Source: a virus
Taxonomy: Duplodnaviria; Caudoviricetes
IMG/VR virus record: IMGVR_UViG_3300025000_000055
Length of the DNA stretch: 64,000 nucleotides
Direction: 5' to 3' (one strand)
Part shown: piece by piece, positions 45,160 to 49,713 of the stretch
How positions within the stretch are numbered: position 1 is the first letter of the stretch
Layout of the letters: every line of letters begins with the position of its first letter
The notes under the pieces: generated by a model
The model's input: the letters and a program-made list of their open reading frames with translations, nothing else
Database searches by the model: none
What the model was told of the DNA's origin: nothing
Made by a program: the position numbers and the translations under genes

Positions 45160-48100
45160 TTGGAGAATAACATAAAAGAAATTATCGATCTATTAAGTAA
45201 TAAGGTTTTTGTTATTTCTGATATAATGGAAAGTAAAGAAACCTTTAATGACATATTAGAAACTGTTTATGACTATTTAAAACAAGGTTTCGAAATCAAA
45301 GAATTGAGAACATGTCCAACCTATTTTAAGTTTAAAGAAGAGGGTGAAATCCATGTATTACAATTAAGACATTTTCTTACCAATTTAATGTTTTGGGAAC
45401 CATTAATGAGATTTGATTATTCTGATAAGATAGATGAGACATATATTGTTGATTGTACTAAAATGTCAAGTAAACTAATTAAGAATTATATTGATAATAA
45501 GATAGTTATACCTTATAAAAGAATAATTCCTAATAAGAAAATGAACAAAGTTATTCATGATATGATTTATAATCTATCTAGAATTTCAAGAGATTTTAAT
45601 ATCATATTAGGTTTATCCATGAATCTTGAAACATTTATTGATGTTGCCAAAAGGAACCCAAGATTTAATGAAATTATTAGAACCCAATTGGATGAAGATA
45701 TGCAACCAACTGAAATTGAAGCATATTTAGATAAATTAATGTATGAACAAATGGATATTTTAAAAAATGACGAGGAGGGAAATTTATTAAAACCAATACT
45801 TAAATCAGGTGCTGGTATAAAAAGTAAACAATTGGCGGAGTTTTCAATTTCTTCAGGGTTAAATATTAGCCCCGTATATAGGCGACTATGTGCGTAAACC
45901 TCTTTAATTGCTGGAAAATCTCTCAAACTCTACTATTCTACCAAAAAAATATTAATAAAAGATGGTGTTAATATTGAAATTAGTTAGTGTTGATTACTAT
46001 AAAAAAGAAAGGCAATATACTATTACCTTTTTTAAGAATAAAAATGGATATAAAACAAGAACTAAAAGATTCACTTATTCTGAAAATACCCATGGTCCTT
46101 TTACTAAATTTCTTGCTATGTATACAGCAAAAACAGGTAAGAGATTATACCACTGGTTTGTTACCGATGGTATATATACCTCAGTTTTTATATATAATAA
46201 AACTTATGGTATTAAACGTATGCTAATAGACAATGAATTTATAGATATTGTAAGAAATCATAAAATTAATATAGTAAAAAATAAAACGGGTCAAGATATT
46301 TTTTATGCAATAATAAAAATGAATGGTAGAAATATTCATGTACATCGTCTTATTATGGGTTTAGGAAAATATAATAATGATCCAGTAGATCATATTTTTC
46401 ATGATTCTTTAGACAATAGGAGATTAAATCTACGTATTTGTACACCTAGTATTAATAATAGAAATTCAAGATTACGTGTTGATAATAAAAGTGGTATACA
46501 AGGAGTTTATTTTAGTAAGCATAGAAAAACATATATTGCAGAAGTAAGGGATTTAAATGGTAAAAAAATTAGAAAACACTTTAAAATAAAGCATAATGGT
46601 AGAGAGAAAGCCATTGAATTAGCAAAACAATGGCGTGATGAAATGGTAGAAGAATATTATGAGAGAAAATCAGCAGCGAAGCCTGAATTTCAGGAACGTT
46701 CAACGACTATCAAAAGCATGTTTATTATTAATATAAAAATATAATAAACATAAGCGAGTAGAGTAGGGCTAGAAGCTAATGCTAGTTCGAAACGGGAGGC
46801 ATCTCTATGAGATGATGATATAGTCTATTATCCTAGAGTAATTTAGGGAAGTTCATAAGAGAACTGTATAGGCGTTGCGTCCTATATGAATTAAAAGTAA
46901 AACCGACTCTTAGTGGTAACACTATACCTATACCAATTAATACAAATTATATAGTTGGTGGACTGAGAAATATATCTAATTATTATATTGATTCCCTAAA
47001 CTATATTGGGGCTTCATACAGTGATGTATGTTGAATAACTTCTTTAATTGTCGGGGAAGCTCTTAGAGCTTTTTATTATATAATAAAAAGATTGAGTAAT
47101 CCGCAGCTAAGATTCCTATTAGTTATAGGAATAAAGTTCAACGACTATCCCCCATTGGCTTTGAAATAAGCAATAGGAGTAGGGCTCAAGTGAGTGGGTG
47201 AGAATCCCTTAAATCGAAATAGGAAGCATCTCTATGAGATGAAGATATAGTCTGGTATCCTAATGAAAGTTAGGGAAGTTCATAAGAGAACTGCATAGAT
47301 TAACGACCTATGTGAACTTACGAGGTGGAAGAAAGTCTTTAATTATGAGCAAACTTGAAATGGGTAAATTGAGTTGCCCATGCTTCTTTAATTGTCGGGA
47401 AATCTCTTAGAGCCTAAAACTACCAAATCATAGTAGTGATATTATGGTGGCTTAGTCTAATCAACTAAGGTATGGTAACAAGGTTTTAGGATTGAGTAAT
47501 CCGCAGCTAAGTTATTTTGTTATGTGTGATATTTTTATATAATTAAAAAAATCTAAAAAAGGAGGTGATATAATATGGGAAAAGAAATATGGAATAAAAT
47601 TATTATTGATGATGAAAATACTAAATATAGTATTAGTTCTTATGGAAATATAAGAAATGATATTACAGGATTAATTTTAAAACCATTTAAAAATCATGAT
47701 GACTATCTTGTTATTACATTATACCATAAAGGTAAAAAATATCTTAGAAGAATTAATATTTTAGTGGCTAAAGCTTTTATACCTAATCCTTTAAATAAAC
47801 CTACAGTTAATCATAAAGATGGTATTAAAACTAATAATTATGTTTATAATTTAGAATGGGCTACTTATTCTGAACAAAACATTCATGCATTTAAAATGGG
47901 TTTAATGAAACCAAAAGTTGGAGAACAATCTCATTATAATAAATATCCAGAGACTACAATTCATAAAATATGCAAATTATTAGAAGATGGATATGACCGT
48001 AAGCAAGTATCTGAAAAATTAAATGTACCAAAATCTCTAATAAAACATATTATAGGTGGTGGATCATGGAAACATGTTTCTTCACTATATATAATAGATC

Positions 48101-49713
48101 GTGAAAAGACTAAAACCAAAATATTAACTGGTTCTAAATCATATTATAGTAAATATTCTGAAGAAACTATTCGTGAAATTTGTTATCTATTACAGAAAGG
48201 TAAAAGTAGGAAATATATTAAAAATAAGCTTAATTTACTTAATACGAGGATAATAATAAATATCCAAGAAGGTACAACATGGAAACACATTTCTTCCCAA
48301 TATGTAATAATTTATGTCCCACATCATATCATACACAACAAAATAAAAAGTTCAACGACTATCAAAAACTTATTCACCATTAAAATAAATATTGGTGAAT
48401 AAAGTGAGTAGAGTAGGGCCTAAGTAGGTGGGTGAAATTCCCTTAAATCGAAATAGGAAGCCACCCAAGAGGGTGAAGATATAGTCTGGTACCCTAGTGA
48501 AAACTAGGGAAGTTCATAAAAAGAACTGCGTAGAGTAACGATTTACGTGAACACCAGGAACTCGGGTCATTTTTCGCGTATGGTCATGCTGCTAGTTTCA
48601 AGTATTAATTTATCAAAAACTGTTGAATCATGTAATAGTGTACATCCAATAAAAATTGAATTATCTTCTAAAGAACATTTGATAAGAATGAGAGGTCGAT
48701 ATTATAGAACTATGTATTCTAGAAATTATCAATTGTTAAAAGGAGATGAATATAATTTAATAAATAAAACTATTTTTATTAAATCACCTGCTACATGTGC
48801 ATGTAAAGATGGTATATGTAAAATGTGTTATGGTGACTTATCATATATAAATAAAGATATTACAATAGGTGCATTTGCTGGTACAAAAATTACAGAACCA
48901 GTATCGCAAAATATTTTATCATCTAAACACTTATTAACAACTAAATCACAAAAAATAGAATTCAATGAAGAATTTTATAAGTTTTTTAATATAAGTGGTA
49001 ATGAAATAATTATCAATGCAAGTGAAGAAAATGATGATTTAGATGATTTTAGTTTACTTATAATTAAATCTAATATTAAAACAATTGCTGATTATGATGA
49101 TAATGATATGGAATTTAATGAATATATAAATCTATTTCATGTATATAATAAGAAAACTGGTGAAATGATTGAAATAAAAGAAACTGGGGAAAAAGATTTA
49201 TATATATCACCTGAATTAAGAAAATTATTTAAGAAGAAAAGTAAGAAAGAAGTTTATGAAATTGATTTTAAAACACTTGATGATGACAATAGAATATTTG
49301 TTATTGAAGTAATTAATAATGAGTTAACTAGACCATTATATGATATTATTCGTTTAATCGATAGAGTTGATTATAGAATTATACATTGGGACTGTGTAAC
49401 AATTGACCAAATGTGTCAAAAGATGTTGGATCTATTAATAGAATCAGAGATTAATTCTGATTCTGTTCATGGTGAATTAATTTTAACACCATTGTTAAGG
49501 GATAAAGAAAATATATTAGAAAGACCTAAATTTAATAGATATTTTAATGATGATAGATACCAAATTCTAACAGTTAAAGCTGCTTTAGAAAAACATCCTT
49601 CAGTATTAGTCGGTTTATCATTCCAAGCACTTGATAGACAATTAACAAATCCATTAACATTTAGAAAGAAAGAAAGCTCATTTATTGATCCTTTCTTTAA
49701 AGAAAGACCATAG
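45160..49713 (+). CDS. rpoC: RNA polymerase beta-prime C-terminal half; spliced, exons 45160-45859, 46898-46997, 47323-47365, 48559-49713 (665 aa)
   Basis: Joins restore SSG|LKPTLSGNTIP, YYIDSL|GGRKSLI and EMG|NSGHFSR (bridge helix); Zn site C..C....IC..CYG; exon total 1998 nt is in frame. Confidence 0.9.
45860..46897 (+). mobile_element. group I intron with HNH-AP2 endonuclease
   Basis: P1 GGGT|T pairs with AGCCC; AATCAGCAGC, TTCAACGACTA, GATATAGTCT; terminal G at 46897. Confidence 0.88.
45962..46744 (+). CDS. intron-encoded HNH endonuclease with AP2-like DNA-binding domain
   Basis: HVHRLIMG, VDHIFHDSLDNRRLNLR, KSGIQGVYF..YIAEV. Confidence 0.85.
   Translation: MVLILKLVSVDYYKKERQYTITFFKNKNGYKTRTKRFTYSENTHGPFTKFLAMYTAKTGKRLYHWFVTDGIYTSVFIYNKTYGIKRMLIDNEFIDIVRNHKINIVKNKTGQDIFYAIIKMNGRNIHVHRLIMGLGKYNNDPVDHIFHDSLDNRRLNLRICTPSINNRNSRLRVDNKSGIQGVYFSKHRKTYIAEVRDLNGKKIRKHFKIKHNGREKAIELAKQWRDEMVEEYYERKSAAKPEFQERSTTIKSMFIINIKI
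46998..47322 (+). ncRNA. ORF-less group I intron (325 nt)
   Basis: P1 CCCT|A pairs with TGGGG; AATCCGCAGC, TTCAACGACTA, GAAGATATAGTCT; terminal G at 47322. Confidence 0.9.
47366..48558 (+). mobile_element. group I intron with HNH endonuclease
   Basis: P1 TGGGT|A pairs with TGCCCA; same core motifs; terminal G at 48558. Confidence 0.88.
47575..48402 (+). CDS. intron-encoded HNH homing endonuclease, paralog of 27021-27905
   Basis: YSISSYGNIRN, AFIPNPLNKPTVNHKDGIKTNNYVYNLEWATYSEQ. Confidence 0.9.
   Translation: MGKEIWNKIIIDDENTKYSISSYGNIRNDITGLILKPFKNHDDYLVITLYHKGKKYLRRINILVAKAFIPNPLNKPTVNHKDGIKTNNYVYNLEWATYSEQNIHAFKMGLMKPKVGEQSHYNKYPETTIHKICKLLEDGYDRKQVSEKLNVPKSLIKHIIGGGSWKHVSSLYIIDREKTKTKILTGSKSYYSKYSEETIREICYLLQKGKSRKYIKNKLNLLNTRIIINIQEGTTWKHISSQYVIIYVPHHIIHNKIKSSTTIKNLFTIKINIGE

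Follow-up and report, generated by a model that had tools for sequence, protein, structure and literature searches.

Is a phage RNA polymerase gene that is interrupted three times within 143 coding nucleotides (nt) a regulatory device, or is it simply a place where mobile introns have piled up? The gene in question lies at positions 45160-49713, on the plus strand, of a 64,000-nt stretch of DNA (hereafter the window) from the IMG/VR virus record IMGVR_UViG_3300025000_000055 (Duplodnaviria; Caudoviricetes), which represents an uncultured giant phage from groundwater. Three inserts with stop codons in all frames divide it into four in-frame coding pieces. Judged by its sequence, the gene is the ortholog of gp154 of phage AR9, the beta-prime C-terminal subunit of the non-virion RNA polymerase. 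The inserts are very probably three paralogous mobile group I introns of the phage IA2-like family, and their clustering a selfish pile-up and not a regulatory design. The coding pieces are the following.

45160-45859, plus strand: exon 1, 700 nt, with a TTG start codon, likewise used in AR9 gp154
46898-46997, plus strand: exon 2, 100 nt, encoding (L)KPTLSGNTIPIPINTNYIVGGLRNISNYYIDS(L), the segment immediately preceding the bridge helix
47323-47365, plus strand: exon 3, 43 nt, encoding (L)GGRKSLIMSKLEMG, the N-terminal half of the bridge helix
48559-49713, plus strand: exon 4, 1155 nt with the stop codon, encoding the C-terminal half of the bridge helix (NSGHFSRMV...), the trigger-loop region and the C-terminus

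Joined together, the exons give a frame of 1998 nt with one terminal stop, coding for 665 amino acids (aa), and the ligated junctions are expected to read GGGT/TAAAAC, CCCT/AGGTGG and GGGT/AACTCG. Ambiguity is inherent at junction 1 only, where a 4-nt TAAA repeat allows four different cuts. It is settled by the fact that only 45859/46898 places U before the cut and G at the end of the intron.

Similarity to the AR9 subunit extends over the full length of the product. Exon 1 matches the beta-prime genes of phages BpSp and AR9 (tblastn), and exon 4 matches those of AR9, PBS1, BpSp and Staphylococcus jumbo phages, the PHROG family phrog_3015 and, over residues 271-629, chain D of the AR9 non-virion RNA polymerase (PDB 7S00; E 9e-29). 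In a three-way alignment, the joined protein matches AR9 and BpSp from end to end, and no break falls on any of the three junctions. The joined protein also aligns with Escherichia coli beta-prime 695-937, including the bridge helix (E 2e-11). Exon 2 corresponds to E. coli residues ~747-776 as well as to AR9 and BpSp, the exon 3 peptide to a 14-residue E. coli stretch and to AR9 GARKALITNYQQVR, and exon 4 to E. coli residues 792-937. The segment YYIDSLGGRKSLIMSKLEMGNSGHFSRMVMLLV of the joined protein aligns onto a 33-residue stretch of E. coli beta-prime, which we take, as established knowledge on bacterial RNA polymerase, to be the bridge helix. Junction 2 thus coincides with the beginning of the bridge helix and junction 3 falls midway along it, while junction 1 is found some 33 codons further upstream, in the conserved stretch that precedes the helix. 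The neighbourhood is retained too: as with AR9 gp154 and BpSp gp219, a divergent family-B DNA polymerase gene on the opposite strand is followed by a small gene and then by the beta-prime gene. Full-length similarity, bridge-helix and trigger-loop motifs and kept neighbourhood, all traits of the AR9 gp154-type subunit, are therefore found together in this gene.

The three inserts carry the following features.

45860-46897, plus strand: intron 1, group I, 1038 nt, with an open reading frame (ORF) in the P5 region, overlapping P4'-P7.1
46998-47322, plus strand: intron 2, group I, 325 nt, without an ORF
47366-48558, plus strand: intron 3, group I, 1193 nt, without P2 and with an ORF in the P6 loop

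Sequence and predicted folding assign all three to one group of related introns, the phage IA2-like family that includes the introns of Twort orf142 and of Staphylococcus phage K. Each 5' exon ends in T paired with G, so that P1 helices of 7, 6 and 8 base pairs (bp) in introns 1, 2 and 3 contain the U.G pairs T45859.G45869, T46997.G47008 and T47365.G47376, and every intron terminates in G (G46897, G47322 and G48558). When the helices were checked base by base, P3, P7, P8, P9, P9.1 and P9.2 were completely paired in all three introns, and P2, closed by a GNRA loop, was paired in introns 1 and 2. P10 is formed by 3, 2 and 6 bp, respectively, that of intron 3 pairing with the start of exon 4. Compensatory differences occur among the intron copies of the window in P3, P8, P9 and P9.2, and relative to the Twort introns in P2, P3, P8 and P9. 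The cores are 75-80% identical to those of known phage group I introns, including phage K lysK, SPbeta bnrdF and PBS1.

The Rfam family RF00028, which the sequence-only reading of this DNA had named as a check, agrees with this assignment most clearly in intron 2. In a scan of 431 nt it matches the full model with 84.5 bits (E 3e-22; gathering score 50 bits), and the conserved U.G pair of the model falls on T46997/G47008. The 3' halves of introns 3 and 1 give partial matches of 32.5 bits (E 3e-6) and 22.8 bits (E 0.0024). The Twort orf142 introns, used as a control, score 64-101 bits. No RF00028 match at the gathering threshold had been returned over the 64-kb window, nor any at E<=10 over 45000-50000. 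As the rescan of 431 nt gives 84.5 bits, these earlier negatives are artefacts of the speed filter. There is a lesson for annotation in this: Rfam negatives on AT-rich phage DNA are unreliable without rescans of small windows (46988-47275 was the part missed here). An intein, a group II intron and a split gene were also considered as explanations of the inserts and rejected, given the stop codons in all frames and the RF00028 match; a split gene disagrees, in addition, with exons of 33 and 14 codons that have no start signals of their own.

The strongest evidence for the predicted junctions comes from natural intron-less alleles. Two close IMG/VR relatives (L003/L004 and L005), with 85-89% nucleotide identity to the window, carry the same gene with other sets of introns. 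In L003/L004 exon 1 is contiguous with exon 2 and exon 3 with exon 4, leaving intron 2 only, and in L005 exons 2, 3 and 4 are contiguous, leaving intron 1 only. Intron 3 occupies its site in the window alone, being absent from L003, L004 and L005. Each of the three sites has therefore an intron-less allele, and the breakpoints in the relatives fall exactly at the proposed junctions. The sequence-only reading had put the junctions at 45859/46898, 46997/47323 and 47365/48559, with a joined frame of 665 aa and "micro-exons" of 100 and 43 nt in the bridge-helix region. All these coordinates agree with the intron-less alleles, with the U.G pairs and terminal G residues and with the protein alignments.

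Selection acts on the exons in spite of their different surroundings. Exon 3 encodes the same 14 residues in the three phages even though up to 10 of its 43 bases differ, all differences being synonymous. The ratio of nonsynonymous to synonymous substitution rates (dN/dS) of the joined genes, each with a different intron set, is 0.08-0.11, which means strong purifying selection. These two observations suggest that all three alleles are functional and that their inserts are removed as RNA.

The last base of exon 3 differs between the alleles: where intron 3 is present (window 47365) it is T (GGT), and where the intron is missing (L003 6000, L005 6000) it is G or A (GGG, GGA). The P1 wobble requires a U, which is thus found only in the allele that has the intron. 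Further synonymous differences cluster around the empty sites. Another observation concerns the IMG/VR contig 3300025000_000053 (249,853 bp), which holds two copies of the gene, L003 at 12738-25898 and L005 at 240801-249853, about 228 kb apart. Their joined proteins share ~90% amino-acid identity and their intron sets differ; the contig probably wraps around a circularly permuted genome, joining two strains.

Several points weigh against the reading of the locus as three mobile group I introns in a functional gene. Introns 1 and 3 score under the RF00028 gathering threshold, because ORFs of ~800 nt split their cores. P10 of intron 2 has only 2 bp (47323-47324). The excision of the inserts by self-splicing is a prediction, as are endonuclease activity, homing and its direction, and no RNA run was listed as containing the sequence. 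Finally, the linkage of three introns on one molecule rests on the assembly of the window. Logan DNA contigs cover all bins at 95% identity or more and bridge the junction of exon 1 and intron 1. They break in the repeated core of intron 2, and none of the listed pieces spans 46870-47482. A scan of metagenome contigs for the window returned only the same contig as in IMG/VR.

The last of these points raises the question whether the three-intron allele is an assembly chimera, stitched from co-occurring strains with one or two introns each. Related strains with other intron sets are indeed present in the sample, one IMG/VR contig does hold two divergent copies of the gene, and the intron 2 core, where the Logan contigs break, is a high-copy repeat of the metagenome (depth 270-1400, compared with 10-40 in the flanks). 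However, the longest exact match between any two introns of the window is 18-24 nt, which is below the usual assembly words, and the exons of the window differ by 11-15% from both relatives throughout, with no mosaic switch. Besides the coverage at 95% identity or more in every bin, the depth of the unique parts of introns 1 and 3 equals the depth of the exons. We consider a chimera improbable to a high degree.

Neither does the gene look like one in decay, in which splicing has ceased for at least one intron and the subunit gene is defunct or about to become so. Such a state could be read into the missing ORF of intron 2, the missing P2 of intron 3 and the weak P10 of intron 2. Against this stand the core helices, U.G pairs and terminal G residues, all intact, and exons free of stops and frameshifts with dN/dS ~0.1. 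Moreover, AR9-type phages cannot do without this subunit, and no further copy of its gene is visible in the window. Decay is extremely improbable.

With three predicted introns in a gene under selection, the question of their purpose can be asked. The sequence-only reading had supposed that such density may impose an ordered splicing or allow exon skipping, and that maturation of the RNA polymerase could act as a timing switch. According to this explanation, the packing forces a splicing order or skipped messages, and maturation of the subunit serves as a timer of early and late transcription. What speaks for it begins upstream of the gene, with this feature:

45094-45110, plus strand: motif AAAATATATATTATTAA, resembling the early (virion RNA polymerase) promoters of AR9 and located ~55 nt before the start codon

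The motif matches the annotated AR9 early promoter sequence upstream of gp154; the consensus of AR9 early promoters is TATATTAT (bioRxiv 10.1101/2020.12.14.422802). Homology to AR9 makes it a putative early promoter, and by the same comparison the product would be needed for later transcription.

It had been claimed that the 43-nt exon supplies both the P10 partner of one ribozyme and the P1 of the next. This is true, and it holds for any exon between two group I introns, so that exon 3 is not special. P10 of intron 2 takes the first two bases of the exon and P1 of intron 3 takes 47360-47365, 35 nt apart and with no overlap, and the determinants of P1 and P10 do not overlap in either micro-exon. 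As they are placed at opposite exon ends, nothing in the sequence imposes an order of splicing, contrary to what had been proposed. In Twort orf142, as rebuilt below, an internal exon is even shorter (23 nt).

Exon skipping, on the other hand, can be envisaged in mechanistic terms. GGGT stands at the end of exon 1 as well as of exon 3 and GCCC opens the guides of introns 1 and 3 alike, so that pairing of the intron 3 guide with the last bases of exon 1 is possible. There are also precedents: Twort orf142, with three group I introns, shows exon skipping according to Landthaler & Shub (1999), as cited in PMC3073962 and PMC11878797, skipping has been shown in a multi-intron gene of SIOphi, and an "on-switch" role has been suggested for phage introns (PMC3073962, PMC11878797). 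But every skipped form of the window gene is frameshifted. Skipping of exon 2, exon 3 or both leads to an early stop at residue 233 or 278, and there is no alternative protein isoform.

For the timing switch no evidence was found. The close relatives have one intron rather than three, at differing sites, under equally strong purifying selection, and hence the three-intron state is not a conserved device. In the characterised phages compared (AR9, BpSp, MarsHill, Machias and S6), the gp154 orthologs have no introns. Taken together, a regulatory design of the cluster is very unlikely. It is a long shot, too, that the introns are kept together because unproductive splicing tunes the timing of the late-transcription polymerase, for instance when intron 3 takes the GGGU of exon 1 and a 233-aa fragment results; if this were true, the intron load would set the early-to-late switch.

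The reading that we prefer is the selfish pile-up of mobile introns. Two of the introns contain predicted endonuclease genes:

45962-46744, plus strand: intron-1 ORF, 260 aa, HNH endonuclease with an AP2 DNA-binding domain
47575-48402, plus strand: intron-3 ORF, 275 aa, NUMOD4 and HNH_3 endonuclease, preceded by a strong ribosome-binding site AAGGAGGTG

The intron-1 ORF matches PHROG phrog_99 (HNH endonuclease, E 4e-26) and Pfam AP2 (E 6e-8), and shares 74% identity with the ORF that the L005 intron carries at this site. The intron-3 ORF matches Pfam NUMOD4 (E 5e-9) and HNH_3 and PHROG phrog_59 (HNH, E 3e-43). Intron 2 has no ORF; the intron that occupies its site in L003, with a length of 1174 nt, does carry an HNH ORF.

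We propose the following course of events. The subunit gene would be transcribed, probably from the AR9-type early promoter, and each ribozyme would fold independently, its guide pairing with the 4-6 exon bases that precede the splice-site U. Free guanosine would then attack and the exons would be ligated, three independent splicing events yielding the 665-aa frame. Most likely, the HNH endonucleases encoded by introns 1 and 3 introduce nicks into the intron-less alleles of co-infecting relatives, which would result in homing. Intron 2 appears to have lost the endonuclease gene that the relative keeps at this site, and may be able to persist or spread only through co-conversion with the introns on either side, at distances of 100 and 43 nt. 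The clustering itself would be explained by a preference of such introns for the most conserved and least deletable parts of essential genes, combined with hitch-hiking on neighbours. This mode of spread is deduced from comparison of sequences.

The introns of the relatives allow some insight into the history of the array. When the 3' domains are compared, introns of different phages that share a site are 92% alike, as against 69-78% for the three introns of the window gene. Each site thus has its own, older lineage, and the array did not arise in a recent local burst. The lineages seem to have exchanged parts: the P3-P6 part of the site-2 intron of L003 (4825-4953) is 91% identical to intron 3 of the window (47383-47511), and its P1/P2 and 3' domain match intron 2. 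Such a mosaic points to recombination between intron copies at neighbouring sites.

In more distant relatives the subunit gene is uninterrupted (L019/L020, L023, L024, L026 and L027) or interrupted in other ways. L021/L022, with 50-57% protein identity, contain a tandem pair of group I cores, the first at site 3 and the second closely behind it; one of the two scores 107 bits on RF00028. Within L021 5552-6998 (and the same in L022), the first core is inserted exactly after ATGGGT, i.e. at site 3, and the second begins 9-10 nt further, with the opening AAATTG.GT.GCCCAT found also in intron 3 of the window. For L021/L022, no exon model with U(-1) and terminal G keeps both the frame and the conserved NSG-like residues. 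In L028 (5993-7001) and L029 (5992-7001), an insert of ~1 kb is located in the trigger-loop region (query residues ~397-409). The three core motifs of the family that were searched for, GATATAGTC, AACGACTA and AATCCGCAGC, are absent from it, and it may be an intron of another type. Insertions in both the bridge helix and the trigger loop indicate that catalytic elements of this subunit are a recurrent target. The bridge-helix insertion sites were seen only in uncultured relatives.

The window contains further interruptions of this kind. At 26099-29637 there is a second RNA polymerase gene, of the beta-prime N-terminal type (...RKSLLGKSIDFGVRSV / ISAPVFK...), cut at 26815-28038 by a fourth intron of the same family, with P1 GUGU/GCAC, a terminal G and an HNH ORF at 27021-27905. 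The intron-3 ORF described above is 53% identical to this ORF. Downstream, the frame of the beta-prime N-type gene ends directly after GGDYDGD near 28795 and is followed by a GIY-YIG-like ORF (29014-29637); this arrangement looks like one more intron, sited in the motif of the catalytic aspartates. At 46697-46751, 48349-48402 and 27834-27905, the HNH ORFs extend with their 3' ends into the ribozyme core, namely P7 and the P7.1 hairpin. Due to this overlap, unrelated endonucleases share the C-terminal peptide STTI(K/E)..(I/F)I(N/K)I. Translation of the ORFs would be expected to compete with folding of the ribozyme.

The bridge helix of beta-prime can be added, by these results, to the sites in jumbo-phage polymerases that are targeted by mobile group I introns. 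Co-occurring groundwater phages present a natural series of alleles, with three introns or with one at either of two sites, which could be used for the study of homing, of co-conversion of an endonuclease-less intron and of interference competition of the PhiPA3 type. The novelty is confined to the host gene and the sites, and the understanding of how such introns work is unchanged.

The PhiPA3 gp210 intron, situated in the virion RNA polymerase gene, provides a tested model of what an intron endonuclease does to intron-less relatives in co-infection; such an enzyme can act in phage competition (PMC11620839). It resembles the introns of the window as a group I intron that encodes an HNH nicking endonuclease and interrupts a jumbo-phage RNA polymerase gene at residues that are catalytic or conserved. 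PhiPA3 differs in having a single intron, in a beta-like subunit, and in belonging to another phage family.

The AR9-type phages represent the same type of phage lineage, with two multisubunit RNA polymerases and AR9-like early promoters, and several group I introns interrupt their genes for RNA polymerase, terminase and DNA polymerase. RNA polymerase genes of jumbo phages are frequently cut by introns (bioRxiv 10.1101/2020.12.14.422802), and the statement of the sequence-only reading that AR9-like RNA polymerase genes carry them is confirmed by that work and by AR9 g189, annotated as a join of 6 pieces. AR9 has 18 RF00028 matches and its terminase is joined from 5 pieces. The g189 gene (virion RNA polymerase beta-N) holds, among its 6 pieces, an HNH-AP2 gene (g190) like the intron-1 ORF of the window. 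The difference lies in the gp154 ortholog itself, which is uninterrupted in these phages and has three introns in the window.

The closest parallel to the crowding is Twort orf142, whose structure we rebuilt from GenBank AF132670 (a join of four pieces) and an intron-less ortholog. Its exons of 336, 50, 23 and 20 nt encode a 142-aa protein and are separated by introns of 325, 252 and 286 nt. Both genes contain three related IA2-type group I introns with very short exons between them, and the ribozymes have the same architecture, with the core motifs GATATAGTCT and AACGACTA in common. The host gene in Twort is structural (tail tube) and its introns are ORF-less, whereas the window gene codes for an RNA polymerase subunit, two of its introns have HNH genes and their splicing is predicted. 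Twort is also the denser of the two, with three introns within 73 coding nt as compared with 143. Set beside the Twort and AR9 cases, the window gene is a real but ordinary intron pile-up, and a less crowded one.

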